Shown piece by piece: positions 2,187-63,450 of a DNA stretch of 64,000 bases; within the stretch, counting starts at the first letter, position 1, and every line of letters starts with the position of its first letter. The stretch is from Haliotis rufescens (Eukaryota), in contig NW_025964372.1 of the NCBI RefSeq assembly GCF_023055435.1, positions 23,250,001 to 23,314,000 on the forward strand, written 5' to 3'. The notes below the pieces were generated by a model. The model searched no databases. It was not told the origin of the DNA and saw nothing but the letters and a program-made list of their open reading frames with translations. The position numbers and the translations under genes were made by a program.

Positions 2187-3561
2187 ATCACTCACTCGAT
2201 TGGGAACTATCGCTCATACTCTCAACATGTGTCGCTGTTCACATAAATTATTTTGGTCATTTCAATTTTTTTTTTTATCAGGTCGTACGGTCTAAACACA
2301 TTTGCATCAGGAAAAAACGAGTTTTTAGTGAAAAAAGATTATCCATAGGGTATTTCAAAAGATTTATTTACTCTGGGTTTATACACTTTTTGTGTAAGCC
2401 TTTTTATGCGATTTCTTGGTCCTTTTTTCCGCATATTGTTTGAAAGATACAGAGGTGCGGACAAGTTCTTTGAAGAACATCTCTTTCCAACGCTGATAAT
2501 AGTAAGGGTGCTTCGTTCCCACGCAAGACGTCGACAGAAAAAAATATATGTTTTTCACCAACAACAAGCGATAGTTCAGAAAACTAATGCAATTGAAAAT
2601 CCATCGATCCAAGGCTTAATTGTGTTTAATGTTCCTGATGTAGCGACAACAAGATCTCATTTTGTATTCCTCCGCCGAATGGCGCAAAGCTACGGGGGAA
2701 ATGAGGGCTTAAGCGGGTCGCACCGTGCCTGCCCTGGCATGCGACAATTTTCAAGGGATAACTCCAATTTCCAAGAACAAGTTTTTCTCAATTCTAGTTA
2801 GCCTCATTCTTTTAGTTTTTGTAGTTTTTCTTTCCTAGAATAGGAACAAAGTAATGACGTGATGCGTTATTTTCTTGCGATGGATGCTATTTACAAGGTC
2901 GAACTATACAACCGCGAGGAGGGGACTGTACGTCACGTTCAAGGACTTCGCGGAAGGTCATAAGTGGTCAGTTGTTTTGTATGTTCGATTGAACTCGGGT
3001 TCAGAAGTATATGCGCCTGAATGAGTACTACAGTTGGCTTTAGAGTGTTTCAGGTATTTGTGAAGGAGTTCATCAACAAATACAGACACTGAAGCGAATT
3101 ATAAACTAGAAAAGAGTGTCTTGCGTCGATATCTCTGTCTTTAGGATTGCTACAGGATTAAGCATTGCCATTTCATGCATATTATTTGAATGGCGGGTGC
3201 TACTGGTATGTCAGGACATGCTTACCCTTTTCGCGAATATCTTGTGTCATCACTGATTTTCATGGATCCGTTCATAGAATTTTCACTGTTTTGCCTTTTG
3301 TGGAATCTGTGTCGTCGGATAATCGAGAGTGACGGTTCTCTGACGTAGACGTTTTATATTTTGTGGATATATATACAATGATGACTTTGTTCATAAGTGG
3401 ATTAAATTATTAGTATTTTGAAAGATTTGGAATAAATTTGATGTCCTCAGTCAGATGATCTAAAATATGTATAATAGCTTAAAGTATTTTACTATATAAT
3501 TTTTAAAGTTGATGCGACGTGGTGATTTATTTTAAGACAGCAAAGGGAACAAGGTATTGTG

Positions 3562-13744: not shown

Positions 13745-14030
13745 TGTTACAGCGTTCAAGGCTTCACTAAAACCTACAAAACGTTTTATGGCAGACATAT
13801 GTTCCCGTGTGTATTTTCAGGTGAACTATTCACTAGCCTTTGCATGTGTTTGTGACGGGTGCCACGGGTGGGACAGGATACGCTCAGCTTTCGCGAACAC
13901 CTGGTAACATCAATATTTGATAGTGATTCATAAACACATGCTCATGGCATACTCGGGATCATACATTCGAATCTGCTTTCGGCAGAGATGTCTTATTAAT
14001 ATGGAAGGGTTTTGTCACTGTTATTGTCAG
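13745..14030 (+). mobile_element. Penelope-like (Naiad-type) 3' fragment with conserved motif E
   Basis: YSVQGFTKTYKTFYGRH (RT C-terminus) followed by gacgggtgccacgggtgggacaggatacgctcagctttcgcgaacacctgg. Confidence 0.7.
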
Positions 14031-16859: not shown

Positions 16860-17415
16860 GATACTGATATTAATACCAGCACCCACTGCCACAGAGATAC
16901 CAGTATTAATACCAGTCCCCACTGCCACAGAGATACCAATATTAATACCAGTACCCATAGCCACAGAGATACCAATATTAATACCAGTACCCATAGCCAC
17001 AGAGATATCGATTCTGATATTAACACCAGTACCAACTGTCACAGAGAAATCGATTTTGATACAAATACCAGTATCCATAGCCACAGAGATATCGATTCTG
17101 ATATTAATACCAGTACCCATAGCAACAGAGATATCGATTCTGATATTAACACCAGTACCCATAGCCACAGAGATATCGATTCTGATATTAATACCAGTAC
17201 CCATAGCCACAGAGATATCGATTCTGATATTAACACCAGTACCCATAGCCACAGAGATATCGATTCTGATATTAATACCAGTACCCATAGCCACAGAGAT
17301 ATCGATTCGGATATTATTACCAGTACCCACTGCGATATAGATACGTATGCGGACATTAATACCAGTAACCACGGCGATATCGATACCAAGTCTGAAATGA
17401 ATACCAGTACCCACG
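16860..17415. repeat. 42-bp minisatellite with 30-bp deletion variants
   Basis: Unit CCACAGAGATATCGATTCTGATATTAATACCAGTACCCATAG, decaying at both edges. Confidence 0.95.
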
Positions 17416-17660: not shown

Positions 17661-17921
17661 AAGATCCGGGGTAGAATAGGTCTTCAGCAAACCATGCTTG
17701 CCGTAAAATTCGACTATGCTTGTCGTTAGAGGGGACTAAAGGGATCGTGTGGTCAGGCTCGCTGACTTGGTTGATGCATGTCATCGTATACCAATTGCGT
17801 GGATCGATACTCATGATATCAATCACTAGATTGTCTGATCCAGACTCCAGATTATTTACAGACCGCTGTCATATAGCTGGAATATTGCTGAGTGTGGCGT
17901 TAAACAACAAACAAACAAACA
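17661..17921 (+). mobile_element. Family B element
   Basis: Near-identical to the 18393 copy; (CAAA)n tail. Confidence 0.9.
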
Positions 17922-18392
17922 AATCATATTACCCGCCACTCGCTCAGTTTTCATAAGAAAGAGCCAGTGAGTAAGGGATCGACCGGAGTTTTGTTTGAAA
18001 AAAGATTTTCTTTTAGTCATCGGTCACAAAGAATTATTTTCTCTGACAAGAAGTGCCTAAAACCAATGTTGATGTCCATACTGATATTGGTGCTGAAACG
18101 TATATATTAGACTCTCCAACATGACTTATCATGAGTTACCGTATGTGTAATGTCGGTCTGGTTATCCAACGCACCAACCAACCCTACTCAACAGGATCCT
18201 ATGCTTTGTGTCCTTAACACTAATAATACGGAGGTGATTTCCGGGCAGGAAATACTTGCCACAAAGTCAATTCAAATGGGGATCGAGTGGATTTTTATGA
18301 CCCTGCTAATTGTAGGTCATCGTAGTTCTTGACCCAAATTCAATTTGCTCGTGGCCGCTATGTATTGCAGGACTATTTCCCACTGCGTTTAC

Positions 18393-18657
18393 TCCCCGTG
18401 AAGATTCCGGGGTAGAATAGGTCTTCAGCAACCCATGCTTGCCGTAAAAGGCGACTATGCTTGTCGTAAAAGGCGACTAACGGGATCGGGTGGTCAGGCT
18501 CGCTGACTTGGTTGATGCATGTCATCGATCCCAATTGCGTGGATCGATGCTCATGATATCAATCAGTGGATTGTCTGGTCCAGACTCTATTATTTACAGA
18601 CCGCCGTCATATAGCTGGAACATTGCTGAGTGCGGCGTTAAACAACAAACCAACCAA
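18393..18657 (+). mobile_element. Family B element, full length, no tRNA head
   Basis: 14-bp TSD cccactgcgtttac (18379-18392/18658-18671); tail gctgagtgcggcgttaaacaacaaaccaacc. Confidence 0.92.
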
Positions 18658-25400: not shown

Positions 25401-26763
25401 ACGACGGTCTGTAAATGTACGAGTCTAGGCCAGAAAATCCTATGCTTGACACCATGAGAATCGCTCCCCTCATTTGGTTTTACGATGATATCCATCAAGC
25501 AAGGCAGGGAGCTTGACCATCTGATCACGTTACCACCTCTTACGACAACTCTGAATTGCAGAAGACGGGGTACGCCTCTTTGAACAGTATTCTATTTATA
25601 TCACTGCGTGTCAGCTGGATACCTAAGTGATGCTGTCTTATACATTTTCGACGATCACAGGTTTGGTGTTGAGAAACCAAGGGTCATAATCAAGGCAAAT
25701 TTGGAATTCGAACCCACTATCTTCGGATCCGCACGCATGCATAAGGGACGCAACTCGACACAGCGAGCTGCAATGAGTAAAGTAGGGAGTGCGGTAAACT
25801 AATTTTGAATGCGTGCGTTGGAGCAATAAACGGCGCCTTAGACGACTGGACTACCTGTACCCCATGCATCATAAAGATTATACTTGGTTCGGGAAAATCC
25901 GTAACTTAACACCGCCAATTTATGCTAAGTTGTCGTCAATAATATTGTCTCAGACAACGTACAAGCATGAAGCTATTCATGGCCATTAGCAATATAAGCC
26001 TTTTCACATGCAGACACAGAGATGCAATTGGAAAGGAACTACAAACTGAAAGTCTCGACAAAATACAGCTGTTCCTTGGCATATCATGTAATATCCTTTC
26101 CAAAATACATGTGCCAACATGTATCAACCTATGACGGTATCTGTCAAATATTTTCTGAATATCCAAATAATTATGCATCCACTACCATATTTATCAAAAA
26201 TTCAATTATAGTGATATGATTCAGGACTCAAATGAAATGGGTGTAGTTTGTGTGTTCACTAACAGAACGTAATCTCTCTCTAATTCCCAGCCATTACCAT
26301 ATCACCCGCCATTAACCATCAGCCAAAGGACAATAGTGTATTAGATATTAGGTATTAGTGTAGTTTATTTTTATCAGAGCAAGCTGAACATGAAGGGCAA
26401 TAATTTGGAGTAATTTACCATTTCTTGACGAGTGCCATGGGTCAGGATATGCTCACGTTTTCGCAAACACATGTATCACCATTATTCAAAAGCGAATCAT
26501 TCATAAACACATTCTTACGGTTTATTTAAAATCGATGAGTGCAATCTGCTTTTGGTAGAGAGTTCTTATAATCATGGAAAGGGTTTTGGGGGCATAAGTA
26601 TTTAAAAAAGATATAGGGATGGAAAGTGTGTACAGTTCCTGAGGGTTTTTCTTTTTTCACAAAAGTTACATATATGCACAAAGTAAAATTATTTTTCATC
26701 TTCTCCATTCTTCAAAGAACAAAGAGATGTTAGGCGTTCCATGACATAAACCGTTATGTCACT

Positions 26764-27024: not shown

Positions 27025-27289
27025 GACCCGTGAAGATCCGGGGTAGAATAGGTCTTCAGCAACCCATGTTTGTCGAAAAAGGCGATTATGCTTGTCGTAA
27101 AAGGCGACTAACGGGATCGTGTGGTCAGGCTCGCTGACTTTGTTGGTGCATATCATCGTATCCCAATTGCGTGGATCGATGCTCATGTTATCAATCACTG
27201 GATTGTGTGGTCCAGACTCGATTATTTACAGACCGCCGTCATATAGCTGGAATATTGCTGAGGGCGGCGTAAAACAAACACACGGACAA
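27025..27289 (+). mobile_element. Family B element, full length
   Basis: TSD acgaacgtg(a/g)atc (27012-27024/27290-27302). Confidence 0.92.
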
Positions 27290-30667: not shown

Positions 30668-32120
30668 AACAACAACCACGTCACATCCACATTCACACCA
30701 ACATCCACAACCACATCACATCCACATTCACACCAACATCATCAACCACATCGCATCCTCATTCACACCCACATTAACAACCGTATCACATCCTCATTCT
30801 CATCAACATCCACAACCACATCACATCCACATTCACACCAACATCCACAACCACATCACATCCACATTCACACCAACATCCACAACCACATCACATCCAC
30901 ATTCACACCAACATCCACAACCACATCACATATACATTCACACCAACATCATTAACCACATCGTATCCTCATTCACACCCACATTAACAACCGTATCACA
31001 TCCTCATTCTCATCAACATCCACAACCACATCACATCCACATTCACACCAACATCCACAACCACATCACATCCACATTCACACCAACATCCACAACCACA
31101 TCCACATTCACACCAACATCCACAACCACATCACATCCACATTCACACCAACATCATCAACCACATCGCATCCACATTCACACCCACATTAACAACCGTA
31201 TCACATCCCCATTCTCATCAACATCCACAACCACATCACATTAACATTCACACCTACATCCACAACCACATCACATCCTCATTCACACCCACATTATCAA
31301 ACCACATCACATCCACATTCACACCAACATCCACAACCACATCACATCCACACCAACATCAACAACCACATCACATCCTCATTCTCACAAACATCCACAA
31401 CCACATCACATCCACATTCACACCAACATCCACAACCACATCACATCCACACCAACATCAGCAACCACATCACATCCTCATTCACACCAACATCAACAAC
31501 CACATCACATCAATATTCACACCTACATCCACAACCACATCACATCCACATCCACATTCACACCAACATCATCAACCACATCGCATCCTCCTTCACACCA
31601 ATATCCACAACCACGTCACATCCACATTCACACCAACATCAACAACCACATCACATCCTCATTCACAACAACATCAACAACCACATCACATCCACATTCA
31701 CACCAACATCCACAACCACATCACATCCTCATTCACACCAACATCCACAACCACGTCACAACCACATTCACACCAACATCCACAGCCACATCACATCCAC
31801 ATTCACACCCACATTAACAACCACATCACATCCTAATTCTCATCAACATCCACAACCACATCACATCCACATTCACACCTACATCCACAACCACATCACA
31901 TCCTCATTCACACCCACATTAACAACCACATCACATCCACATTCACACCTACATCCACAACCACATCACATCCACACCAACATCATCAACCACATCACAT
32001 CCTCATTCACACCAACATCAACAACCACATAACATCCTCATTCTCACAAACATCCACAACCACATCACATCCACATTCACACCTACATACACAACCACAT
32101 CACATCCACATTCTCACCAA
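30668..32120. repeat. C/A-rich ~35-bp minisatellite (CACATCCACATTCACACCAACATCCACAACCACAT)
   Basis: Directly visible; almost G-free on the + strand. Confidence 0.95.
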
Positions 32121-33432
32121 TCACTTCCACAACCACGTCCACAACCAGGTCCACACCTACATCAACAACCACGCCCACAACCACGTCAAAACCACATCCA
32201 CAACCACTTCCACAACCACGCCCACAAATAAGTCCAAAACCACATCCACAACCACTTCCACAACCACGTCCATACCCACGTCCATAATCACGTCCATATC
32301 AACGACCATAACCACGTCCACGCCCAATTCCACAACCACGCCCACAACCACGTCTACAGCCACGTCCATACCCACGTCCATACCCACGTCCATACCCACG
32401 TCCACAACCACGTCCATAATCACGTCCATACCCACGTCCACGCCCACTTCCATACCCACGTTCATAACCACGTCCACGTCCACGCCCACTTCCATAACAA
32501 CGTACACGCCCACTTCCATAACCACGTCCATTCCCACGTCAATACCCCCGTCCATAACCACGTCAACGCCCACGTCCACGCCCACTTCCATAACCATGTC
32601 CACGCCCATGTCAATAGCCACGTCCATAACCAATTCCATAACCACGTCCATAACTACATCCACGCCCACTTCCACAACCACGTCCATACCTACGTCCATA
32701 CCCACATCCATTACCACGTCTATACCCACGTCAATACCCACGTCCATAACCACGTCCATAACCACGTCCATAACCACGTCCGTACCCACGTCCATAACCA
32801 CGTCCATAACCACGTCCATAACCACGTCCATAACCACGTCCACGCCAAAGTCCATAACCACGTCCATAACCACGCTCATAGCCACGTCCGTACCCACGTC
32901 CATAACAACGTCCATAACCACGCCCATAGCCACGTCCGTACCCACGTCCATAACCACGTCCATACCCACGTCTGTAACCACGTCTGTAACCACGTCCATA
33001 AACAACGTCCATACCCACGTCCATAACCACGTCCATAACGACGTCCATAACCACGTCCATTACCACGTCCATGCCCACGTCATTAACCACGTCCATAACC
33101 ACGCTCATAGCCACGTCCGTACCCACGTCCATAACAACGTCCATAACCACGCCCATAGCCACGTCCGTACCCACGTCCATAACCACGTCCATAACCACGT
33201 CTGTAACCACGTCTGTAACCACGTCCATAAACAACGTCCATACCCACGTCCATAACCACGTCCATAACCACGTCCATACCCACGTCCATTACCACGTCCA
33301 TGCCCACGTCATTAACCACGTCCATAACCACGTTCATACCCACGTCCATACCCACGTCCATCACAACGTCCATAACCACGTCAATAACCACGTCCATACC
33401 CACGTCCATACCCACGTCCATAACCACTTCCA
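32121..33432. repeat. 12-bp minisatellite CCACGTCCATA(A/C)
   Basis: Directly visible; source of the TTSI/MDVV/GRGY ORFs. Confidence 0.95.
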
Positions 33433-34081
33433 TACATATGTTCCACATCCACATCTTCAAACGTACGTTCTCATCCAGCATCTCACACAACAGTAACCAA
33501 AACGAATACCACACCCAACATCCAGCCATACCACATTTAATTTGTTATCTCATACCTTATTCTTAAATACAACTTCAAAGATGGATCGCGCTTGTCACAA
33601 ATCACTGACAACTTCAGACTTTGCGAAACTCTTTTCAGACACACACTCGTTACTAAATTGCCATCCGAAGCTAAGACGGTCTGACGTTCACTGACTAATT
33701 CCGCCGTTATTCATCTTTGATATCAACTCAGACCCTTTGGTATTTCACTTTTTTCTCAATACTCCTCGTTCTATATCATACAAAACAAGTAATCTGTCCT
33801 GCACTTTCGCGTACGTCCGCCTATGATGGATTGTCCTTCAAACCTGCGCATGCAAGAGGTCAATACTGATTTATCCGACAAAAGAACATGTTGTTTTGAA
33901 CTATTAACATTTTTCAAGAATCGATTGTGCTTTTTGATGCAGTTTGTTGAACAAAGATATGTGTTGGAAAGGGCGGTATTTCACTGTCCCTTTGTCCCCC
34001 TCTGAAATGAAGGCAATTTGTCTGGGGAATCAAAGAAAGGGAAATGGGGAAGAATGTTGATCGAATCCGTTCTGGGAGTTT

Positions 34082-34582: not shown

Positions 34583-34683
34583 GGGAGTTTTGGAACGAGG
34601 TCTCCCAATATTAATTTTCTTTCACCGCTCAAATGTTTGAAGAGTAGATGTGGGCTAAAACACTCAGGTAGGGCCAAGAACTG

Positions 34684-36157
34684 TATTAGTGACAGTGTCG
34701 GTGACAATAGTATTGACAGTATTAGCGACAGTGTCGGTGACAGTATCAGTGACAGTGTCGGTGACAGTATTAGTGACAGTGTCGGTGACAGTATCCGTTA
34801 AAACGTATCGGGGATAGTATTAGTGACAGTATTAGTGACAGTGTCGGTGACAGTATTAGTGACAGTGTTGGTGACAGGGAGATGGGGAGTTTTGGAACGA
34901 GGTCTCCAGATTAGTATTAGTGACAGTATCAGTGACACTATTAGTGACAGTGTCGGTGACAATATCAGTGACAGTGTTGGTGACAGGAAGATGGGGAGTT
35001 TTGGAACGAGGTCTCCCAATTAGTATTAGTGACAGTATCAGTGACACTATTAGTGACAGTGTCGGTGACAGTATCAGTGACAGTGTCGGTGACAGTGTTG
35101 GTGACAGGAAGATGGGGAGTTTTGGAACGAGGTCTCCCAATATTAATTTTCTTTCACCGCTCAAATGTTTGAAGAGTAGATGTGGGCTAAAGGTAGGGCC
35201 ATGAACTGTATTAGTGACAGTGTCGGTGACAATAGTATTGACAGTATTAGCGACAGTGTCGGTGACAGTATTTGTGACAGTGTTAATGACAGTATTGGTG
35301 ACAGTATTTGTAACAGTAATAGTGACATTGTCGGTGACAGTATTAGTGACAGTGACGGTGACAGTATCCGTTAAAACGTATCGGGGATAGTATTAGTGAC
35401 AGTATCAGTGACAGTATTAGTGACAGTGTCGGTGACAGTATTAGTGACAGTGTTGGTGACAGTATCAGTGACAGTTTTAGTGACAGTATCGGTGACAATA
35501 TTGGTGACAGTGTCGGTGACAGTACCAGTGACAGTATTAGTAACAGTGTGAGTAACAGTGTCGGTGACAGTATCAGTGACAGTATTAGTGACAGTGTCGG
35601 TGACAGTATCAGTGACACTATTAGTGACAGTGTCGGTGACAGTATTAGTGACAGTGTCGGTGACAGTATCCGTTAAAACGTATCGGGGATAGTATTAGTG
35701 ACAGTATAAGTGACAGTGTCGGTGACAGTATTAGTGACAGTGTTGGTGACAGTATCAGTGACAGTATCAGTGACAGTATTAGTGACAGTGTCGGTGACAG
35801 TATCAGTGGCACTATTAGTGACAGTGTCGGTGTCAGTATTAGTGACAGTGTCGGTGACAGTATCCGTTTAAACGTATCGGGGATAGTATTAGTGACAGTA
35901 TCAGTTACAGTACTAGTGACAGTGTCGGTGACAGTATTAGTAGCAGTGTTGGTGACAGTATCAGTGACAGTATTAGTGACAGTGTCGGTGACAGTATCAG
36001 TGACACTATTAGTGACAGTGTCGGTGACAATATTGGTGACAGTGACAGTGTCTGTGACAATATTAGTGACAGTATCGGTGACAGTATTAGTGACAGTGTC
36101 GTTGACAGTGTTGGTAAGAGTGTCGGTGACAAGTGTCGGTGATAGTGTTAGTGACAA
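34684..36157. repeat. 12-bp minisatellite GTGACAGT(ATTA/GTCG/ATCA) with captured unique segments
   Basis: Directly visible; interrupted by recurring ccgttaaaacgtatcggggata and ggaagatggggagttttggaacgaggtctcc. Confidence 0.95.
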
Positions 36158-37493
36158 TATCAAGTACATAATACCGGTTTTAGTCACAGTGGTAGAGTTA
36201 GTCATATGACAATATCATTGTCAAGTCGTTTAGCTTCTACAATAGTGAAAAGTGGGTGGAAAGGGCTATATATAGCTGTTTATCGGCTTTTTGTTCACAG
36301 GTATCAGTATTTTCAGTCATACCCAATCTGAACTGTACTGGGCATGGAAATAATATGATCTTGGACTTAATCAAAATAAACTTCGATTGGTTTTTGTGGA
36401 TCATTACGTCAATGTTTGTTTGACTTAATAGATAATAGAATACTTTAGAGTTAGTGAATCTGTCCAAAGTTTCTTTTAACAAGCATTTATATTGCTTTTT
36501 ATACCGTCTAGTTTTGATTTTTGTCAAAAAGAAAACCGTTTGATTTGACGTATTTTGGCTTGTTGACAGACTCACGACATATTGATCTCGACAGCAGCAA
36601 TCTGAAATATATACTTTGAACCCGACTGTGATGTCATTCTTTTATTCTCGGATGTTGACGGGTTGATGAAACATGGGAGGTAGTTCTTTGATGTTGAGTT
36701 TGTGGAGTACTTTTACCATCTGTAATCTCTCTGACATCTCACCGGCTGTAACTAATAGATTAGCCGAAACAACGTCTGTTACCTTGTCAAAACATATTTA
36801 TTTGTCTGTCATGGTGTTTAGAAAAGTAAACGAAATGTACTCTTTCGAACTATCGAAGGTGTTTTTAGAACTAGGAGTTAATAAAAATAGATTACATATT
36901 GTTTTTTTACAAAAAGATCATTGACGTGTATTCTTTTGGTCAAACTGCAATACACTCTATAAACTCCTTATTCCGGAAGTACCGATCTAGTGAAATTCTC
37001 CAGGTTCAGGTTTTCTCGAACCAGTCATAGGTCTGACTAGGGTCCTGTCTACCTGAACGAGTAGACAGACAGTGACCGATGTCTCGTAAGCTGCGATTGG
37101 ATAACACTAAACATGGCATTAGTTGGTCTTCGGTAACTAATGAAGACGAAGAGCCGTCTACGTGAAGTTTGTGTTGTGAAACTGCTTTCGCAAATACTTC
37201 AATACATCAATATGTTCGAAAAAAATAACTCAACAGAACAGTTTGATATAATTATTATCGCCCCAAAACAAACTCGACTCGTAGACTTGTGCACTTGATG
37301 GCGTTCGTAATTAAGGACGTTACGCATGCGGACATTCATGAATAACCGGATTAATTTGTGTATTTAAATTTTCTTCTGTTGATCTTTACACGGCTTGTAG
37401 AGGTCACTGCTTTACAAAGAGGTGATGACAACTTGGCCAAAATTCGGTGAAGTTACTTTTATACCAATGCAATATTTCAAAGTTGCCAGAATG

Positions 37494-37699: not shown

Positions 37700-38015
37700 T
37701 ATCCTGAGAGTATAATGCCCCACTGGTGGCACCTGTCGCATGCACATGCAAAGCCATGTCAATTGATCACATGAAAGAGCCACGGGAACATATGGTTCAA
37801 GTCAAAATAGGGCAAATAGGGACATGATTTTGGTTACCGATGTGTCACATTTCGAAATACCGCCCACGTGTCTACCATAAAACGTTTTGAAACTTTTACT
37901 GAGGCATTGAATATTGTAACTTTGATCAAGCAACTTTTGAGCACGAGTCGAATGACGCTGTGTGAAATCTTTATGAAACACATGAGCACGGGGATGGTGC
38001 TGACCAACAAAGAAC
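37700..38015 (-). mobile_element. Penelope-like (Naiad-type) RT C-terminus plus motif E
   Basis: Minus-strand HKDFTQRHSTRAQKLLDQSYNIQCLSKSFKTFYGRH. Confidence 0.75.
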
Positions 38016-40380: not shown

Positions 40381-42572
40381 GTGAGTATATACACATGTTT
40401 ACGGTTATTGCATTCATTTTATGATGATTTATCGTTTCATGAAGATGTTATTTTAGATGAAGAATGTTTGAATTGTCAACACACCAAGAAATGTGACTGG
40501 GGTCAACCTTCTGTTCTCATGACGTAACGGTTCTAAGCTGTGACGTCATGAACCACCGATGACGGGGCGAAGATTGGTCAGAGACCTGTAACTTATTATC
40601 ATATACCATAGATCCACCATTTTTGTGTAACATTTTTCGCTTCTCCCCTCCTCCCAATAATAAATGACCAGTCCATAAATAATGTTTAGATTCATTACTT
40701 ATATTTGAACCTCCTCCCCTCGCCACCTCGCCACCTCCCACTTTCCCTACCTATAATGCCCTGGGGTCGGGGTCGGTATTCATGGGGTCCGGAATAACGG
40801 GGTTCCACTGTGTGTGATTTTGTAGGTTACATAAAGTGTGATCGTGGGACTCATAACATTTCATTTCCAATAACTTTGCTTGACACCACGGCCGCGTCAG
40901 CAAACGATGCATACTGAAACAAAAGCAAGACAAATACTCTACTCTGGGCTGTTTTAATGAAGGCGCCACTTTCTTATTATCAATATAATTTTAATTTACT
41001 GATGAAGTCCTCAGAATGATCATTGATTGAGCCATATCACGAAGGACGTGAACTTGGAATCACAACACGCATTGTTCATCTTGTTTCCATACACTTACTG
41101 TATTTCCCAGTTTTTTGTAACGTGGAAAGGATTCAGAGATTAGACAGCAGTCATTACAATGCAGGACACGTGGAGGCCTGTGTGTGGTCCTTGTCTTGAG
41201 AAACACGACACTCGCTATGGATCAATAATGATTCTAAACCGTTAAAACCTATTTCAATTTTCAACCTCTAAAAATTACGACAGGCCGTTGATTTTCTTGT
41301 CTAAATTTGCATTTGCCCGTCGGGGCCACTTTCATGTTGAGATTAAAAAAAACAGTATTGCGGTCCAGCCTTAGGAGATGTGTTTCCGTACGCCTGTAGT
41401 TGCAGAAAACGTCATCCGGGACATTGATTTGTCATTGTCTGGGTCACGTGACAGTGAGAACGGCGCTTGATGGAGGAAATCATAAAAGTGTTATCCGTGT
41501 GTTAAATGCTCGACTCCAGTAAATTACCATTCCCATAGCCTGATACCGGATTTTGACACAGCCAAATGAATTCTGTTATAGACTAAGAAATGCCTGTTGA
41601 TTGAAAACTTTAAGAAGAAAATCGTATTTTTTGTAATTATGGAATGGACGTGAATCCGACAGATCAGAGTCAACGCTTCCGCCTAGGCTCCGGAAAACAT
41701 TCACAATAGATTACATGCGCACTGGCATTTCCGGTTACGGGTCCGCAGCTGAAAAATCCCAGCATGTGGTGACGATGCCATTTTCTTAACACCGACACAC
41801 ATTTCGCCCACATATTCACCTTACAACGAACATTTTGTCGAGTTGATCCATGGCCACTACAGCTACATCTATATAAGGCAGTTCATACGGTCTGATAAAT
41901 TTGTCTGTTACGATTCGCTGGTCTTGGGTTCGTGTCGCACGTAACATCTGGATATTTAACCTTGGCCTGTCCTCAGCATTCTACTGTTTATCGTCCGGCG
42001 ACTATATTGGAGCGGGGTAAGACACGGTGACTGCGTGATATCGTAGCCAGATGGTATGAATTGCCTGTTCTTTTAACTACTGGATTCCATTATTTACAGA
42101 CACATATTTGTTAAAATTGAAATATTTGTAAAATATAAAGACACTTGGTTGGGAAAGTTTCCCTGCGTTAATTGGCTTTTCTAGTCCTTCGATAACTTGA
42201 TTACTATCGTCGCATGACAGGAGTGCTGCTGTGCTGCGTCAGGCACCAAACACCTAGGTTTTTTTCAAGCTGTGTGAGTGGCTGGTGCAGCCGGTGGATT
42301 GAGACATGCTTACCCTTTTCTTCTGTTGTTAAAACATATTTTATCATCCCACAGGAGATATCGCTTGGGTGAGATCAAGCGATATCTACACTGTAGATAT
42401 CGCTGCAATGAAATTGCATCACAATCCTTTGCAGACCATTGTGACGCCATTGGTTACCATGACGTCACAATCAAATGACATCACTAATGGCTCTGCTACT
42501 GAAGCTTAAGACACTGCTTATTACTGTCTACAAACTGAAAAAGTTGGAAGAATGATGTTGGATGATAAATAA

Positions 42573-45721: not shown

Positions 45722-45977
45722 TTTGTTTTGTTTGTTTGTTGTTTAGCAATATTCCAGCTATATGAGGGCGGTCTGTAAAGAATAGAGTCAGGACCAAACA
45801 ATTCAGTGGTTGACATCATGAGCATCGATCCACGCCATTGGGATCGATGACATGCATCAACCAAGTCAGCGAGCCTGACAACACGATCCCGTTAGTCGCC
45901 TCTTACGATAAGCATAGTCGCCTTTTACGGCAAGTATGGGTTGCTGAAGACCTATTCTACCCCGGGTCTTCACAGGT
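45722..45977 (-). mobile_element. Family B element, full length
   Basis: Reverse complement of the 18393 copy. Confidence 0.9.
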
Positions 45978-46056
45978 CTGCCGAAATATGAAAATAGAAG
46001 CGACAGAAATCTTTTTCATTATCATAAGAAAGCCAGAGTCCACTGTACGAATCTGA

Positions 46057-46215
46057 GTGAGTGAGTATGGTTTTACGCCGCTTTTAGCAATATTCCAGCA
46101 ATATCACGGCGGGGGACACCAGAAATGGGCTTCACACATTGTACCCATGTCGGGAATCGAGCCCGGGTCTTCGGCGTGACGAGCGAACGCTTTAACCACT
46201 AGGCTACCCGACCCC
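46057..46215 (-). mobile_element. SINE family D, full length
   Basis: tRNA head, (ACTC)n tail, 14-bp TSD ctgtacgaatctga (46043-46056/46216-46229). Confidence 0.92.
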
Positions 46216-46234: not shown

Positions 46235-46570
46235 TCATGAACATGTGTTTATTAATCACTCTCAAATAGTGATGACACCAGGTGTTCTCCATGGTTTGAG
46301 AGTATCCTGCCCACCGGTGGCACCTGCCGCAAAGTCAAGTCAATTGATCACCTAAAACAGCACAGGAACGTTTGGCACAAGTCAAAATAGGGATTATCAT
46401 CGGACATTATGTTGAAAATTGCGCAAAATTAGAATTGTCCTCCACACGCTACCAAATACTTTCTTGAAAGATTTACAGAGGCCTTGAATGTTCTTACCCT
46501 GATCAAATAGCTTTTGAGCAAGAATCCCATGGCGTTCTTTGAAATCTTCCTAGAAAGAGCAGACCAGGGG
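46235..46570 (-). mobile_element. Penelope-like (Naiad-type) 3' fragment plus motif E
   Basis: Minus-strand EDFKERHGILAQKLFDQGKNIQGLCKSFKKVFG, then ggtgccaccggtgggcaggatac..aacacctggtgtcatcact. Confidence 0.75.
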
Positions 46571-47589
46571 ATATCTTTGCATTACGGGGATATCTTTGTG
46601 GAGTGTCCGTGATTATGTCATCTTAGCATGACTGGATTTTGTAGCCTCATGTGTTATATGTGTGACATAGAGTGTGAACTTATTCTTAGCGACGTTTACC
46701 ACGTTGGTCAAACCGGAATGTGGCATTGAGTGCGTGTGTCTGGGGACACCCAAAATGGCTTCGCACGATGTACCCATGTACCCATGTACCCATGTACTCT
46801 TTGGCATGCCTCATCATTTTAACCTCGGGGCCATCCAACACCAAATATCCAACATATGAGAAGAAAGTCTTGATTCATAACTATATAGGTTTCTGTATAT
46901 ATGTTTCTGGTTCAAAGTGGAGTTTAATACTGTGTTCAAAACTGAAGTTAACACTTTATGTTCGTCCACTATTGATCTAACAGAAATAAAATGAAACTTC
47001 CTTAACTCGAAGTGATGGGGAAAATAAAAAAATATATCGAGTTATCACTACTTCGAGGCAAACGGAGCGCAGACAGAGACTATAATTCCGATACGGATAC
47101 CACACTGACAAACATTCCTCGCCTCAATCCCATAACCTTTATTAGATGAAAAGGCAACTCGGATGCTTTAGTGATGGTGAAAGTGAGAAGTAACTGTCAT
47201 GACGGGACCGTTTAAGCTTAACGTAAAAATTATTTCTAACTTTACCCTTTTTTCCGGATGATACATGATTATCTTTTTCCCGATGCCAAACATGTACTTT
47301 TGTGCTAAATTTGTCATTTCCTTCCGATAAATTTGATCGAGATTTTATGGATTTTTACATAATTACATTTCATAACATGGTCTCGATTTCAATTTTATTT
47401 CCTATCAAATCAGTGATCGAAGTGGACGTAACGAAGCGTTCACTTGGGATTACCGATGGGGCAGGATACGCTCACGTTTTCGCAAACACCTGGTATCATC
47501 ACAGTTTGATAGTGATTGATGGACACATGCTCATGATTCCATCGATTTTGGTGGTTATTTCTTATAAGTATTGAAAGGGTTTTGTCGCT

Positions 47590-47900: not shown

Positions 47901-49073
47901 TTGCTGCTGGCGAACGACTGCTGTTTTGAGCAGTGCCAACGGCCCCTCCTTCTACGCTCCCTTTCTAGCCTCGCGGGTGTTGTCAAGTCACACGGAAACC
48001 ATATACGTGCTTAGTGGGTGTCTATAGAGGAGAGCGCGCCCGGAACATCCTCAGGGCAAGGATCTACGTATCCTAACGTATTTATTTGTATTGCGCTATA
48101 GCCTTTAGATCGCCAGTTTGAGCGCTGGAGCACGTATACCGGTCGGCCATAGTAGGCTTTTGTCAGTGTGAAATATCTGTTCTTCAGGAAGAAGGTTGCA
48201 GGGAACGCTGGCCTCGGCAGATTCAGAATCTTACTGAGTTGAAAGGCTATATTACTTCTAAGTCTAGTCTGAGATTGGGCTTTGGGCACAGCCTGTGTTG
48301 TTGGCGTTCACTTTGTGTGTTTCTTTTTGACTGATTGAATAATTGTAATTTACAAATTTCTTGATAAAGATGCTAATTGTAACATTGCAGTCACGTGGTC
48401 GTGATTAACCCCCTTTGAAAAAGAACGCCAATGCGAATGTATGATTTCCCTCGTGGCACGCCACTTTCACTATAAATGACCTTGACATTGAGGCGAATGT
48501 CCCTATGAGGTCATTTCGAGGTCACTCGGAGGTTCCTCTGATTATTGTTCCAGACGGCTGTTTTCGATTGGAATACAATCTGACGATATACTATCGATTT
48601 GTAAGAAAACAAATGTCTGATGAGCGACCCCCTGATTATGACTTTGGACCACAAACAGCCTGAAGAACTGATCAATACCTATCGACAAATACATGTATGC
48701 CTGTCTTGTCGAACTTGAATAGGATATTCCAAAACTCGACCTGATATTCAACTAATTAGTGTAGTATGACTTGACTGGTAAAAACACGGTTTTCGTGAGG
48801 TAAAGGGGCACGAGGTACCAGACCAGAAGTCAATGCAGCTGAAATTCGCTGTGCAGAGTTGTGTCTCATACCTGTGTCAGGATCCTACGACCGGGTTCAA
48901 ATCGAACATTTACCCTGATTGTGTTTCTTAGTGTCTCAACACGTGCACCATACCAATGTGTGTTTCATCAAAGTGGTATACCTATCAACCATGTACCATG
49001 TCGACTGTCCTCCAACATCAAGCACATGTTTTTTTGTGATAAGAGCTTGTTTGTTGACTTGTTAACCTTTGAA

Positions 49074-49317
49074 AGGGGACACAGTAGGCCAAGTCGTCAA
49101 AGGCTCCGCAATTTGCTGTGCAGAGTTGCGTACCTTGGGCACGCCAGAAACCGACTATTTGGGTTCGAATTCCGGTTCCTCCCGAATATGTTTCTAGGTT
49201 CAACATAATATAACCCTTGCTCGTGGATTTCACTAAAGTGGTAAACGTTAAGCTGACACGCCGTGATATAACTGGAATATTTTTCAAAGTGGCGTTAAAC
49301 CGAACTCACTCACTCAC
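49074..49317 (+). mobile_element. SINE family C
   Basis: ggccaagtcgtcaaagg..gggttcgaattcc..gctgacacgccgtgatataactggaata..(ACTC)n. Confidence 0.85.
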
Positions 49318-50744
49318 TGACCTGTGTATGTTGATTTTTGCTCATATTGATCGAATCGACTTATTTCTATAATAAGTTAGGACCTAGCGATCAGAACACA
49401 TAAAATACTTGTTCCATTAACTACAAGGGTAAAATGCAACTATGACACTGGTACACTAGTACTCATAACCACACTGATACCCAACATATCCAACATATCA
49501 AAATACCCATGTGCCAACATACAGAACCGGACGTCAAACACTGACAGGTCAGCTTCAGTGATCTGAAAACCTACGTGTTCGATTCACCAAGAAAAAAATA
49601 AATTGTTCTAGATACCCACACATTGTTCAGCCAAACCATCTTCCTGTGAAAATCAGAGGATTGGTCTTGAAGTTACGAGTAAGAATGTTTCCAAGTGGGA
49701 AGAAAATGTGACAAAAAATGAAAGCAGACTACTAGGTACAGGTCAACTGCTACTGGATGTCAGATATCTCCTTTCATTCTCAGAGCAAAGCAACGCTCTG
49801 CCCGCGGCTGCCACTCCAATGCATCAACCCCACCTTGAGCACAATTGACGCACTAATAGCCTTCTCAATTTAAGACGCATGTCGATGCTTCCGAGAAATA
49901 CCCCGATTGCTCCTCAGTCAGAGGAAGATGTCTGACAACATGCTTGTAATTCTAGCAATATGGTTCCTGTTAAAACCTCGGGGCAATCTCTAACTTGGAT
50001 GTCTCTGCAATGCCTTTCGCCCCAGTACAGCTTGTAATACTCATCATACAGAGCGGAAAAGATCTCAGATTTGCAAATTAGCAGTCGGTGTCAATCTTGA
50101 AGAAAGTTGTCTAATTAGTAATTGTAAGGTCATGTAACGTTTCTCCTCACGCTCGTCATTACAAACGTTTAAAACGATCATTTTTCATGCGGATCAATAA
50201 TTTGGGATTTTGTCCGGTATAAAATACGGATGTTGTTAATGAAAAGATTGTCCGGTTTCTAAAGGAAGCATTATGTTTCCTTGTCTGAACTATGAACTTC
50301 CGTGGTTGGCTTAACTTAATCCCAAAAGTCCTGTTGCTAACGGAAGAACCAGAGTGGACCTGAATGTAGTTGATTTGATGATTGTCAAAGGAAGAGTTAT
50401 CGCCCTTTGTCTAGCACTGCCTCCATGGTTTGTGAGTTTGGATTACTGCTTTGAGATATAAAGAAAAAGGTCTGCTGGTGCTCTGGTCATTTTGAATACA
50501 AACTTCTGATGAGCTACATTTATATTGCCTGAAAGTGAATAATACAGGTCAATGTTGGATATGATCCTTCTGTGGTCGACATTTTGATTTATCCATGGTT
50601 TGACCGATGTACTCGTATCTGACATCATCAACTTTTGTTAAATGAAAGTTTTTGATCATATTTTGTAAGAAACACGTTTGAAAATGTGTACGCAGGATTT
50701 ATAAACGTCATTCAGTCCCCTGCAATCGATTCCGTGTTGCTTGA

Positions 50745-51026
50745 GAGTGAGTGAGTGAGTTATGTTTAACGCCGTTTTAAACAGTATACCAGTAATATCG
50801 CGGCGTGTCGACTTAACGTGGGAGGAAAGTCCGAAGTGATGCAGGTCTCAGACGTTTACCACTTCTGTGAAACCCACGAGCACGGGTATGGTGCTGACAA
50901 ACCTAGAAACATAATTTGGGCGAACCGGGATTCGAACCCACAATCATTGGTTTCTGGCGTGCCCAAGGGACGCAACTCTGCACAGCGAATCGCGGCACCT
51001 TAGACGACTGGGTCACCCGTGCCCCC
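50745..51026 (-). mobile_element. SINE family C, full length
   Basis: TSD tg(t/c)tgcttga. Confidence 0.9.
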
Positions 51027-53500
51027 TGCTGCTTGACGAAAACAAGCAAGAGAACTTTACACAGAATAATGCTTTGTAGGTTTTCCTTGCGCCTAACAAC
51101 GATGTTAACTGTGGTTGTAGATGTACGACAGTAATTTTAGGTTCATTCTGAAGTGGCGCTGTACAAATTTTGGTAACACAGACGTAAAAGAACAGTTTGG
51201 ATGCGGTGAGTGTGAAGGATTTGAATTTGATCTCATGGAACAATTTATGTTCAACAAATACAGGAATGTTTTCTACCTAGTTGGAGAAGTCTGAAGAAGA
51301 GTTACCACTCGCTTCAAATGCTGAGCCAAGATTTTCAGACGGGTTGGTAAATTGTTATGCAAAAAATAAACATAGGCTCAAAACGGCAAAAACATATTTT
51401 GTTTTCTAAACAAATGGGATGTCAGCCATGATCAGAAACAAATCAAAATACACACTCAATCAGCTAGTAATATTACAAGGATTCGCAATTATATTTTGTA
51501 CACACATACAAAACGACTTTGTCCCAGACTAAGACGATAAGATTTAATTTGCCAACTCGAAATGAACATGCCACATTTATTCTACGTCGAATCAAGCACT
51601 CATCTGAACAGCGTCTTGGGGAAACAAAGTTTTCTTGAAGCGCCCCAAATGGCTTGCCATCGTGCGGCACAGACTTAATCTAGTATACTGAAGAAATCAG
51701 ATTTTCTTCAAAGCAACCCGAGACATGTAATATAAAAATCTGTCATGTTGAAAGAAACTTGCAAACTGTTTGTGACCTCTCATGACCTTTGGCGAGTACG
51801 TCAGAATCAATGAAAGCCCTTGTAACGATACATGCTAAATGAGCGAAAAGAGTAGTTCCACTTCAGTACGGCGACAGGAACCAGTGCGTGAGGTCAGACG
51901 GAAATCTTCGATGTTGAGATGCTTTAATTGACCAACTTAAAGTACTGTAAGTCCATATGTTGAAGAAAATGACACACTACACTGTTAAAACCGGCGTTGT
52001 TTATTCATATGACAGAAGTACAAGTAGAATATTGAGATTTGAAACAACCTTTTATTGATCATCCAGATGTGAGTATTCTCATGTTACAATAGAGTTTAAA
52101 AGATTTGTCATCTAGCTGATGATGAATTGATGAATGTGTACGTAGGTGGTAGCTGGGGTCAATAATATGTGTTCCAGGGTCTATGGTTTTGACATTACTT
52201 TCGTTACATATTTGTTATTGATGTTCCTGCCCGTGTAATGACATGGCAAATAGATTTTACATTACTTTTATATTGTTCAATATGTTAAGGGATTTATTAG
52301 AAGTATCCGCGAGCAGTAACAACTATGATTTCATCAATTCCAATTAATCAATAATAAATTAAAACAATAAATGCCATTTAGCATGACTCCAGGCGATTCA
52401 GATCGCCAACATATCACTCAATCTATATATTTTTGTGTGATTATCATCTTTCACTGTCCTTAATTAGCGCCCCGCAGGAAATTTAAGTTTTATATATTGC
52501 TCCATTCGCCCAATCGAACATAAATTCAGTTTTTTCATGTAATTGAAAGATGAAAGAACTATTTATAAAATTGAGTATGTCTTTTTAACCATCACTCATA
52601 CATGCAAACGTTTGTAAAACATAAACATTTTTGCCTGGGTAATTTTGTGTAAAAATAAGCTGGTTCAATAAAGAGATGAAGTTGCAACCACATGTTTGAA
52701 ATGTAAATGTGTGCAAATTTGTTGATTTTCAAACATAAGATTCTAAGAATTTAAATGCTTTTAAAGTTTAAAATACAAAACACGCTGTATTCTGTTGAAA
52801 GCAATATTGAAGAATGAAGACAGTACTGGTTGTGTAATTGCACAACACTAACTTCGACACTAAAACCGTGTAATGCACCCGACCCCAGCAGACACAGACT
52901 ACTCAAACTTAAAATATATAAGAACAATTTCTGAAGTAACTGTTTCCATGTTGCTGTCGGATCGGGAAATGTCTGAACAGGTTTGAACTCTCAGACCCAT
53001 GATCCAGACACGGGAGTTCTCTCCTCGAAGTCAATGTAATTACGACCCGATCATATTGAGATGCGTATGTCAGCATTAAGTACTTACACTGGCGTGGTTA
53101 AGTGCAGTGATAAGCGTTAACGCTGACAATAAGTAGCTCTCTGGCGCGTTGTCTGGACTGTGTGAACGCAGGTTTCCCAAGAGGTGGGACGATAGAGCGA
53201 GACATCCACACAATAAAAGCTTAATAATAGAAACCAGAGAGCAGATGTAAACAGCTTGTGTTAAGTATTTCATGTTTTGTATGAGTGAATAGATTAACAT
53301 CATATCTGCAACGATCAGCCTCAAGTTCAAGACTGTCTCATGATATAAGCAGCAGATAGAAACTTTATCCAGAATACCGTATGGATTTAAACTAATTAGA
53401 AAAAAATGTACGTGGTACGTCTTGAGAGGAATTACATTCATGATAGAATTATCGAACTTAAGCTTTGTCTTTAGGTTCAAACAACAAACATATTCCTTAA

Positions 53501-54239: not shown

Positions 54240-54519
54240 TGAGTGAGTGAGTGAGTTGGGTTCAACACCGCTTTTAACAGTATTCCAGTTATATCACGGC
54301 GTGTCAGCTTAATGTGGGAGGAAAGCCCGAAGGGATGAAGGTCTCAGACGTTTACCACTTCGGTAAAACCCACGAGCACAGGTATGGTGCTGACCTGGAA
54401 ACATAATTGGGGCGAACCGGGATTCGAACTCACAATCATAGATTTCTGGCGTGCCCAAGGGACGCAACTCTGCACAGCGAATCGCGGCGTCTCACACGAC
54501 TGGGACACCCGTGCCCCCC
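54240..54519 (-). mobile_element. SINE family C, full length
   Basis: 12-bp TSD aagaatattaag (54228-54239/54521-54532). Confidence 0.92.
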
Positions 54520-57181: not shown

Positions 57182-57868
57182 ACCAGATATTTTTTCAGCT
57201 AAAGTTGCAAAACCAGATATTTTTCAGCTAAAGTTGCCAATCCAGATATATTTCAGCTAAAGTTGCAAAACCAGATATATTTCAGCTAAAGTTGCAAAAC
57301 CAGATATATTTCAGCTAAAGTTGCAAAACCAGATATTTTTTCAGCTTAAGTTGCAAAACCAGATATATTTCAGCTAAAGTTGCAAAACCAGATATATTTC
57401 AGCTAAAGTTGCAAAACCAGATATTTTTTCAGCTTAAGTTGCAAAACCAGATATATTTCAGCTAAAGTTGCAAAACCAGATATTTTTCAGCTAAAGTTGC
57501 AAAACCAGATATATTTCAACTAAAGTTGCAAAACCAGATATTTTTTCAGCTTAAGTTGCAAAACCAGATATATTTCAGCTAAAGTTGCAAAACCAGATAT
57601 ACTTCAGCTGAAGTTGCAAAACCAGATATTTTTTCAGCTTAAGTTGCAAAACCAGATATTTTTTCAGCTTAAGTTGCAAAACCAGATATATTTCAGCTAA
57701 AGTTGCAAAACCAGATATTTCTTCAGCTTAAGTTGCAAAACCAGATATATTTCAGCTAAAGTTGCAAAACCAGATATTTCTTCAGCTTAAGTTGCAAAAC
57801 CAGATATATTTCAGCTAAAGTTGCAAAACCAGATATATTTTCAGCTAAAGTTGCAAAACCAGATATTC
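57182..57868. repeat. 28-30-bp minisatellite ACCAGATATATTTCAGCTAAAGTTGCAAA (about 23 units)
   Basis: Directly visible; lies upstream of a MITE-like end atcaaatggtcggcccct (58040). Confidence 0.95.
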
Positions 57869-60519: not shown

Positions 60520-62380
60520 CGATAATATCTAATATTACTACCAAATAGTGATGATATGAAGTGTTCCGCGAAAAGGTGAGCGTATCCTGCCCCACCGGTG
60601 GCACCCGTCACAAACACATGTAACGTTATTATTCACCCGAGAAACGCGGGAACAAATGGTACAAGTCAAAATAGGGAATTGCTTCGGGCCTGACTTGACT
60701 ACAATGAGCCTGATTGAACAACGTCTAAGCAAGAGTCGTATGATGCTCTTTGAAATCTTCTGGGAAAGAGCGTGCTGGACTCAAAAGTTGTTGGAACCAA
60801 GGGCAGAAGCTGCTGAAATATCGCTCGATATAAAGGGAAAGTTGACTATTGGAGACTTGAAGCTATTCATAGATCTATATATAAAACAAATCAGGTTCAC
60901 TGGTCCGTTTTTTTTCTTGTTCAGATGGGTACATCAGTGGAAGGGAATTGGCTATTTGACCAATATTGAACTATATCAGATCAATGATGTACCTGAAGCT
61001 TACGTTAAAGGCCTTGGCCAAATTACCTTGTTTTGACGTTGCCAATCTGAGCAGAAATCCCGATTCGTACGCATACAGAAACAGTTCAGGAAGGAGGAGA
61101 ACTCAATAAGTGCCTATGGGGATGTCACCTTTTACTTAATTGTCTTATTCCAATATATCAAATTGATGCCATTTCATCAGTCACATATTGTTTTCTCATT
61201 AAACTTCAAGATGACATTTTGCTCTCATTATTGACAATTGTCCTGAACTTCTGAAAATAGACATGTGACTATATCTAGTATTGTCATCACGTTTCGTAAC
61301 AAATGCCCATAGATCAAGGAATAAACTATTTCCTTAAGTTTGTCAAATGGAATTGTAGTGTGCATAGTTGTTCCTTTCTGAAATTGCACATATTTAAGGA
61401 AATCATTTGAGCTTTTGAGAATCCCAATGATATTAATTCCCCTTGTCTCAAGTGCTTTCTGTGAATGTAAAGAAAGTCCTTCCTTGATAGAATTAATCAT
61501 TACGGTTAATCTTCGAGACAGGAATTGGGTGATACATTAACTGGACCCTGCAGTATAGCTCCTTGTGTATGTTTTTTTTTATGGAGCTACAAAAAACAAC
61601 GGATATTTCAGGTATTAGAGTCAGGTTATAAACTGTTGGTACTGTTGCCTGTTTTTGTTTGCAGATTGGGACAGAATGGGTTCATTTTGTTTCCTTTCTT
61701 TTCAGTTTGTGCTTTCTATACCAATGACAAAATTACGCACTGACCTAATTTTGAAAGACATTCACCAGGTTCATTTTTTCGACAACATCCATAATGATTT
61801 TAAAGTTGTGATCCTGATTGGTAGGAATCTGCCATACCTTTAAAGATATTCATGAAGTTCGACTTCACTGATGGTCCATTGTTATGCACACTTGGACAGA
61901 ATTCATAAGGGGCGGGCGATTTGATATTTATGAGGTGGTGGGGGTACAAAATGGATGAGAATCAATCGCCAAAACATAATCAAAATAATCTGCTGAGCAA
62001 TGCACGTGCTACCATTGTGATTAATAATTACAACAAATATCGATAATATATTCCGACTATATCACTACCAAATAATGATGATATGAGGTGTAAAAGGTCA
62101 TCGTATCATGCCCCATCGGTGGCACCCGTCACAAACACGTGCAACGTAAGTATTTACCTGAAAAAAAGCGGTAACAAATGGTACAAGTCACAATAGGGAA
62201 TTGAATCAGGGACATTTTTATCACTGATTCTTCAAACTTGTCCTCCACATAAAACCGTTTGAGACATGGACAGCTGACACCCTAATCATATATCAAATTG
62301 ATGCCATCATAGCAGTCACATATTGTTTTCCCATTATCCTCAGATAATATTTGCTTTCATTATTGACAGATTGACCTGAA
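60520..62380 (-). pseudogene. Decayed Penelope-like (Naiad-type) reverse transcriptase with duplicated pLTR-like segments
   Basis: Minus-strand RT motifs GILKSSNDFL, TMHTTIPFDKLKE, IPIGT..LLPELFLYAYE, MYPSE and PIVNFPFISSDI. Segment 60520-60680 is repeated at 62042-62203. Confidence 0.8.
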
Positions 62381-62559: not shown

Positions 62560-63450
62560 GCAATACTGGTAGAACAGAAATTGGAAAAGAGTAATGTTCA
62601 CAGGAGAAAGCAGATTCAGGTTTTTCCTAATAGGTGTAAGAATTTGTGTCAACCTCCGACAATGACAATATTGTTGCCTTCAGGATGTCGAACTGTCTGG
62701 ACGTGACAGCATATGTAGCCCGGCCAGTGCGGCATCATCATCCCTGTCAAGGCGGCATCTGTAGCCAAATCAAAGTGGCATCATTATTCCTGGAATGCAG
62801 CATCTGTGACACTGTCAATGCTGCATCATTGGCCCTGTCAATTCAGCACCTGTAACCAAGTTAAGAAAGATCTTTTGATTTTGGAAGGACTCACCACTGG
62901 ACAGCATTACATTGACCAGTCTCCCTATCCTGTTGTACTACCGTTCTTGCAACAGAACGTTTCAACAAGATAACACAAGACGTCATGTGACTTGCCTTGG
63001 TCAGCACGATAACGAGACTAATCACCTTTGGAGTGAGTGAGTGAGTTGGGTTTAACGCTGCTTTTAACAGTATTCCAGTTATATCACGGCGTGTCAGCTT
63101 AATGTGGGAGGAAAGCCCGAGGGGATGCAGGTCTCAGACGTTTACCATTTCGGTGAAACCCACGAGCACGGGTATGGTGCTGACAAATCTCGAAACATAA
63201 TCGGGGCGAACCGTGATTCGAACCCACAATCATAGGTTTCTGGCGTGCCCAAGGGACGTAACTCTGCACAGCGAATCACGGCGCCTTAGACGACTTGGCC
63301 ACCCTTGCCCCCTATCACCTTTGAGATTTGAAACAGTTCCGAGATTTGGAAAAGTTGTGGGATCACCTTGACCGTCAAATTAGTTCACGACCAGGTCGCC
63401 CTTATAACAAAGATCATTTAGCAGAAGAATGGTGTTGAATCCCATTTTTA
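62560..63450 (+). pseudogene. Tc1-family transposase relic interrupted by a SINE
   Basis: WKRVMFTGESRF, LEGLTTGQHYID..VVLPFL, FQQDNTRRH, LEKLWDHLDRQI..EEW. Confidence 0.8.
63031..63313 (-). mobile_element. SINE family C, full length
   Basis: TSD atcacctttg (63021-63030/63314-63323). Confidence 0.92.

Follow-up and report, generated by a model that had tools for sequence, protein, structure and literature searches.

The window, a 64,000-nt stretch of Haliotis rufescens DNA, carries at 60796..61578 on the minus strand the decayed reverse transcriptase (RT) remnant of a Naiad Penelope-like element (PLE), broken by stops and frameshifts (tblastn E 1e-17 and 1e-9; HMM E 5.5e-8). Downstream of it, on the same strand, lies a copy of a short element, motif E, with its core at 60552..60608 (covariance model (CM) 39.7 bits, E 1e-10; also detected by nhmmer). 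Read on the minus strand, the core opens with the 5' strand of a closing stem, P1, CGGGTG at 60602..60607, whose partner at 60558-60563 is CACCYG in intact homologues. Next come a 10-nt palindrome (palindrome 1, 60592..60601), predicted from covariation in homologues to form an intermolecular duplex, a purine linker with a conserved CAG (60587..60591), the five variable nucleotides of a pseudoknot 5' strand (60582..60586), and a conserved GCTYAC segment (60576..60581), a candidate core that, like the CAG, is recognised by homologue comparison. Palindrome 2 (60564..60572), a predicted second intermolecular contact, measures 6-8 nt in intact homologues and has one extra base here. Directly after P1 stands the pseudoknot 3' strand (60553..60557), the partner of 60582..60586 by covariation, and directly after that a hairpin, P5 (60534..60552), seen in homologues and decayed in this copy. 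The 5' strand of an outer stem, P0, occupies 60608..60621; its partner is disrupted here, while all 14 bp are intact in the copy at 13855. The studied copy is itself decayed, with changes in the P1 3' strand and in palindrome 2. The enclosing GGGTG/CACCT stem and the two palindromes that a first-pass annotation of this DNA had described are present, and the 5-bp covarying pseudoknot, outer stem and hairpin go beyond it.

Nine recurring sites had been proposed for the window, and an nhmmer search with the 60552-60608 copy as query returned nine places that are exactly those sites (E 8e-22 to 0.019). A CM built from 34 outside homologues only recovered 7/9 of them at E<0.01. The best preserved, 13855..13909 (+; CM E 4e-12), follows a KFYGRH-type remnant at 13748-13798, and 3193..3249 (+; CM E 1.4e-9) represents a second subfamily in which 5/5 pseudoknot pairs are formed and compensated relative to the other copies. 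The copy at 46273..46327 (-; CM E 2.3e-5) comes after the RT remnant 46451-46591, that at 47460..47497 (+; CM E 3.6e-5) is truncated or decayed at its 5' side, and those at 26428..26478 (+; CM E 9e-4) and 62079..62129 (-; CM E 0.009) are decayed. A half copy at 37713..37736 (-), after the RT remnant 37823-37996, reached CM E 0.064 and nhmmer E 6e-5; the last copy, 42271..42348 (+; nhmmer E 0.019), listed earlier at 42280, is weak and doubtful and gave no match to this CM in the window scan. Seven window copies are clear and two weak, and all are decayed fossils of a motif-bearing Naiad element. RT C-terminal remnants stand upstream of 4/9 copies (13748-13798+, 37823-37996-, 46451-46591- and 60796-61578-), which supports the Naiad context suggested at the outset. 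Each half of the earlier consensus has only one matching place in the window at ≤3 mismatches.

Other repeats share the window. Two families of 250-280-nt dispersed repeats are SINE-like, the first at 5392-5649, 49070-49323, 50745-51027, 54241-54518 and 63031-63313, the second at 10440-10697, 12060-12315, 17661-17923, 18395-18654, 27025-27294 and 45722-45979; a SINE-like repeat interrupts the Naiad tail near 46054-46212. Long tandem arrays occupy 12889-13740, 16853-17413, 30672-33434, 34683-36162 and 57182-57866, and the 21-nt array among them stops some 10 nt short of the RT remnant belonging to copy 13855. At 11308-11676 (+), a 122-residue open stretch resembles the restriction-like endonuclease end of a non-LTR retrotransposon.

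Homologues were collected with a pattern that fixed only CGGGTG, CAG, GCTYAC-Y and CACCYG and left both palindromes unspecified. It yielded 122 metagenome loci (25/64 parts scanned), one viral locus and 87 prokaryote-genome loci (GTDB); viral contigs gave one match per pattern, neither with the structure. The 123 non-GTDB matches were split by locus GC into 110 below 50% and 13 above, and the 87 GTDB matches served as a negative control. Greedy clustering of the 110 gave 34 groups (sizes 65, 11, 2 and 2, plus 30 singletons), the four larger ones being represented by their best-paired member; the 34 are not independent lineages, about a dozen being decayed singletons of large families. Because CGGGTG, CAG, GCTYAC and CACCYG were fixed by the pattern, finding them invariant among the metagenome loci is no independent evidence, a limit partly offset by a search for CGGGTG alone in the available Naiad part of the PMC8557442 consensus file, which found the whole motif at 11/15 places.

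A text search of the accessible portion of the same supplement found motif E in at least 12 of the 54 published Naiad consensi, a lower bound since line breaks in the file hide some matches. Two are cnidarian, five bivalve, four hemichordate and one from a fish, some names being inferred from file order. By eye, palindrome 1 is fully paired in 12/12 of these excerpts (purely Watson-Crick in 9), the first four pseudoknot pairs are kept in 12/12, and a perfect palindrome 2 of 6-8 nt is found in 11/12. One crustacean Naiad consensus in this portion carries a diverged version of the motif. In two Chlamys consensi (PMC8557442 File S6, near parts 29 and 31 of the excerpt) a P1-like stem closes a hairpin around a near-palindrome.

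Palindrome 1 has at least four of its five Watson-Crick pairs in 94/110 low-GC metagenome matches, against 1/13 high-GC and 1/87 GTDB matches, and the 110 hold 18 distinct perfect 10-mers. The single GTDB match that pairs, L158, comes from a bacterial assembly, in which a 407-nt scaffold bears an intact Naiad-type copy; it is likely animal DNA contamination. The pseudoknot joins the five bases after CAG to the five directly after CACCYG. Its first four pairs are all formed in 73/110 low-GC, 0/13 high-GC and 1/87 GTDB matches (L158 again), and in 0/110 when the strands are slid by 1-3. Scored on majority-letter clusters, the pseudoknot is kept in 25/34, against a permutation mean of 4.4 and maximum of 12. 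In the 34-cluster alignment, double changes occur at all five pseudoknot pairs and all five palindrome 1 pairs, and 93% of cells pair as against 32-44% in slid registers; this slid control weighs more than the shuffle of the alignment tool, since the shuffle ignores relatedness. A mutual-information scan with no assumed structure put pseudoknot and palindrome 1 pairs in 9 of the top 10 places. Among the 13 RT-linked clusters, the pseudoknot is kept in 12, in 10 sequence types, and palindrome 1 is perfect in 10. Palindrome 2 reaches at least 6 nt in 20/34 clusters (shuffles: mean 4.4, maximum 12). Both segments thus stay palindromic while their sequence changes, the check that had been suggested for them. 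The outer stem abuts the motif in 24/32 (shuffled mean 11.4, maximum 16), usually with a hairpin right after the pseudoknot; the GTDB controls were weak for this stem (45/85, GC-rich), so the shuffled control was used.

P1 is less informative in this set, since all but one of its pairs are pattern-fixed; that pair alternates between G-U (29) and G-C (5) over the 34 clusters. The one double change in P1 comes from the second of two oppositely oriented, GC-rich copies in L015, at 1266-1321 (-) and 2717-2767 (+), which was found by CM. It is possible that GGGTG pairs with YACY of GCTYAC instead of CACCYG, but this is disfavoured by that single double change, which favours CACCYG, the columns being otherwise fixed. 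The second L015 copy, with its compensated P1, has a 9-nt palindrome and a 4-bp pseudoknot. Close to both L015 copies is a GIY-YIG match of low significance (Pfam E 5e-4), missed by the Naiad profile, and the host element of these copies may be a more distant relative. The short AGG:CCT stem with loop of the first-pass annotation was rejected, as it holds in only 3/34 clusters.

Read on the sense strand, G-U combinations number 18 and A-C 7 (p 0.04), a modest sign of a sense-strand RNA. Conservation above the flanking sequence, a point raised with the original description, is seen in seven RT-linked loci whose RT ends are 34-69% identical: flanks lie at the shuffled level (upstream 0.43 vs 0.41, downstream 0.50 vs 0.52), while motif identity averages 0.68, partly through selection by pattern. 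Taken together, these sequence comparisons indicate that motif E is a real, deeply conserved, covarying RNA pseudoknot of Naiad elements.

An RT lies upstream of the motif in 30/110 low-GC metagenome matches by tblastn and 25/110 by HMM, and in 0/100 control matches. At the level of clusters, the HMM shows a Naiad origin by RT for 13/34 and no RT upstream in 21/34, as expected for 5'-truncated copies and short flanks. In L009:278-953 the motif follows a broken zinc-finger ORF (Pfam E 0.05), with no Naiad RT, and is likely a truncated copy inserted into another element. The motif-linked RT of locus L053 has 395 relatives, of which the best 120 were examined. DKA replaces DKG in 120/120 of these, all outside the window remnants, and a GIY-YIG pattern (regex) is found in 93/120, always before the RT and never after. 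Pfam places GIY-YIG at residue 108 in proteins P0001 and P0007, and the domain is not preserved in the window's own Naiad copies. By eye, four of these proteins show a stretch resembling the CxC linker motif. DKA and an N-terminal GIY-YIG are hallmarks of Naiads in the available text of Craig et al. 2021 (PMC8557442), and the host of motif E, with its C-terminal RT, relatives with N-terminal GIY-YIG and DKA, 5'-truncated copies and tandem layout, corresponds to the clade as described there. The same portion of that paper reports that Naiads lack canonical hammerheads; it does not describe motif E as an RNA, though the motif is present in its consensus file. The host element is already known, and any novelty lies in the RNA fold.

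Within the element, 15-95 nt separate the RT stop from the motif start in 8/9 loci checked, and about 240-260 nt in L053. Copies of the largest family have ragged 5' ends and a fixed 3' boundary about 210-235 nt from the motif start (52/65 copies at +200 to +239). This mapping puts the motif inside the 3' UTR and not at the element's 3' end, where it had been placed before. A slight surplus of 5' ends within 20 nt upstream of the motif (16/65) is confounded, because the copies had themselves been selected by the motif. L034 shows a tandem layout, with the GIY-YIG region of the next unit coming after the motif. At least 10 Naiad consensi in the accessible part of PMC8557442 File S5, some of them with no motif E found, carry a second conserved motif at their 5' start; it also lies downstream of motif E in L034 (about 1835, +) and L086 (about 504, motif strand). 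In these excerpts it is enclosed by a variable stem and followed by a TATA-like box; corals have related forms. It is absent from the window, had no Rfam match in L034, and is a candidate protein-binding or initiation RNA. By eye, the TATA-like box comes after the upstream repeat, so a normal transcript may contain just one copy of motif E. Four RNA runs from two studies, chosen by species label, gave 13,343 reads in both orientations on L017:560-1060 with no pile-up of ends. Short reads from many diverged copies carry no information on cleavage here, and the approach found no ends at an active PLE hammerhead either. Joints at position 886 of L017, seen in 3-4 reads, were set aside.

How would such a fold be used? 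In 31/34 clusters the two neighbouring bases at the centre of palindrome 1 are complementary, and they covary strongly. Two neighbours cannot pair with each other in a hairpin, so palindrome 1 likely pairs between two copies. For 19 of 20 examples the hairpin is predicted at 0 to -2.6 kcal/mol and the self-duplex at -9 to -21 kcal/mol. The length of palindrome 1 is nearly fixed at 10 nt (9 nt in two copies, L069 and the second L015 copy), which on geometric grounds would match an 11-bp stack of P1 and pseudoknot. Dimer formation through the palindromes is therefore strongly suggested by sequence, and the dimerisation put forward in the first-pass annotation is likely.

Dimerisation recalls the hammerheads of other PLEs, which carry dimer-type ribozymes with palindromic loops in their terminal repeat, according to the available portions of PMC4209133 and PMC6765202. 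Motif E resembles these in host class and element region, and in having a self-complementary segment proposed to pair between tandem copies; the hammerhead segment is too short to fold alone, and so is the palindrome of motif E. A palindromic segment implying a dimer is thus found in the terminal-repeat region, as for the hammerheads. Motif E differs in having two palindromes instead of one, a 5-bp covarying pseudoknot and no CUGANGA/GAAA core, and it is known here from sequence alone. A hammerhead was rejected directly: CUGANGA plus GAAA boxes occur in 0/34 clusters on either strand, CUGANGA alone in 1/34, and there is no Rfam match. Some Naiad consensi in the excerpts show hammerhead-like cores by eye or HHR_core labels; two of them (PMC8557442 File S5, near parts 13-14, one a nematode by its header) have such cores with a long stem II insert, which canonical descriptors may miss. 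Mutual exclusion of motif E and hammerheads is not established, since two motif-bearing consensi in the available file come from a species with HHR_core in 3/4 families.

Other known classes were compared as well. Rfam 15 gave no match at gathering score in the window and none over motif E in L034; with the threshold relaxed to E 10, 18 loci yielded a single hit overlapping the motif, a lncRNA fragment (17.5 of 50 bits). Twister was rejected, with TAA anywhere in the core in 8/34 clusters, a loose regex matching 2/34, only one covarying pseudoknot and no Rfam match. The palindromes of motif E presumably map to the positions of twister's optional stems. Judged by the parts of PMC8495972 and PMC10085705 at hand, the two share a variable covarying pseudoknot, whereas motif E lacks a conserved U^AA, a G-A ahead of the pseudoknot strand and a second pseudoknot. 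With respect to twister sister, the equivalent of G36 is G in 26/34 clusters and not invariant, and the top 22 covarying pairs include none that joins the sequence beside CAG to that beside GCUYAC, where the flanking stems would be. The order of the GCUYA and CAG strands we take to be the same in both. Loop L1 of twister-sister/TS-like ('lantern') RNAs, in the accessible part of PMC11620745, sets G7-C8-U9-C10^A11 opposite C37/U38-A39-G40, which resembles GCUYA opposite CAG. Compared with the 5+6-nt TS-like loop GCUC^AA / GCNAG, however, the bulged base is absent from motif E or the register is shifted, there is no Rfam match, and A12 is C, a change that the same portion reports as nearly inactive in LINE-1. 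The likeness is a lead only, because the flanking stems are missing and many classes were compared; were it genuine, cleavage would be expected at the Y^A step of GCUYAC. The hatchet segments C20-A22, U28-G31, G63-G66 and A73-A75 (positions from PMC6561176) occur in 0/34, only RCAG being shared. An HDV-like fold (P1, P1.1, P2, P3, P4 and a catalytic C in J4/2) was rejected, with one pseudoknot only and no Rfam match; the absence of bases between P1 and the pseudoknot 3' strand leaves no room for P4 or J4/2. The SECIS RUGA / AA / GA spacing occurs in 0/34 on the sense strand.

The reading we prefer is that motif E is a dimer-dependent self-cleaving ribozyme in the 3' UTR of some Naiads, which we regard as having about an even chance of being correct. 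P1 would stack on the pseudoknot to give an 11-bp stack, and palindrome 1 would form a duplex of similar length between two copies, the partner being a tandem unit in a read-through transcript or a second transcript. CAG and GCUYAC, which the covarying helices do not explain, would then form the core, and the dimer would cut its own RNA like the dimer-dependent hammerheads of other PLEs. The catalytic claim draws on position and design, as a positional argument, and not on a recognised active site. In a fuller form, to which we give tentative credence falling a little short of even, motif E would be a new structural class of ribozyme whose activity requires a dimer, held together by two palindromes of unconstrained sequence placed around a pseudoknot, found in Naiads of at least four animal phyla and filling the place of the hammerhead in other PLEs. 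The second motif at the 5' start of the same Naiads could hold any processing role, which counts against a ribozyme. In an anole PLE, according to the accessible part of PMC11167929, hammerhead cleavage is dispensable for insertion in vitro and reverse transcription starts internally.

Possible, though on the whole unlikely, is a non-catalytic RNA dimerisation module, in which the palindromes join two transcripts or tandem repeats, the pseudoknot only presents them, and the outcome would be help with template switching or the building of partial-tandem insertions. It accounts for both palindromes and for the covariation of the central pair, and it sits well with the tandem layout of L034, in which GIY-YIG of the following unit comes after the motif, and with the predicted dimer of another PLE's protein in the available part of PMC11167929. 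It leaves unexplained why unpaired CAG and GCUYAC are conserved across phyla, and most Naiad consensi showed no motif in the text searches of the accessible file, yet are described with the same tandem structure.

We find it improbable that motif E is a binding or initiation signal for the Naiad RT/endonuclease. Such a role would suit conserved bases held on a fixed scaffold in the most-copied region, and the ragged 5' and fixed 3' ends of the largest family. Against this, a 3' boundary about 210-235 nt from the motif start implies that reverse transcription starts well downstream, and in the studied PLE the inferred protein-binding RNA falls within the ORF's first 172 nt, away from the terminal repeat (accessible part of PMC11167929). 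The RT-recognition signal offered as an alternative in the first-pass annotation has become less likely, given that motif E was seen by text search of the available file in only 12/54 consensi and that the more widely shared motif at Naiad 5' starts fits the role better.

Quite improbable is a nuclease-blocking or stability element in the 3' UTR, for which we take viral exoribonuclease-resistant RNAs as the likeness. The motif does come just after the stop codon, and its loop pairs with bases directly 3' of the closing stem, but this explains neither palindrome, and no such match arose at E up to 10 over the motif in the 18 loci searched with Rfam. A DNA-level element, either a protein site or a fold of single-stranded cDNA, is very improbable: the palindromes are symmetric on both strands, but a sequence-specific site would not allow 18 perfect palindrome types, the pseudoknot covaries, and it is the sense strand that favours G-U pairs, among them those of the G-U/G-C alternation in P1.

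No description of motif E was found in the openly accessible literature searched, nor in the available portions of the retrozyme preprint 10.64898/2026.07.22.740005 and the Craig preprint. About ten classes of small self-cleaving ribozyme are known, by the part of PMC10085705 at hand, and if motif E is a ribozyme it would add a new class to those of animal genomes. Should it not be catalytic, a dimerising pseudoknot with two palindromes, extending from cnidarians to fish, would still be an RNA family undescribed in the literature searched. At 55-100 nt, with a fold defined by covariation and many natural variants, motif E provides a handle on Penelope-like transposition.
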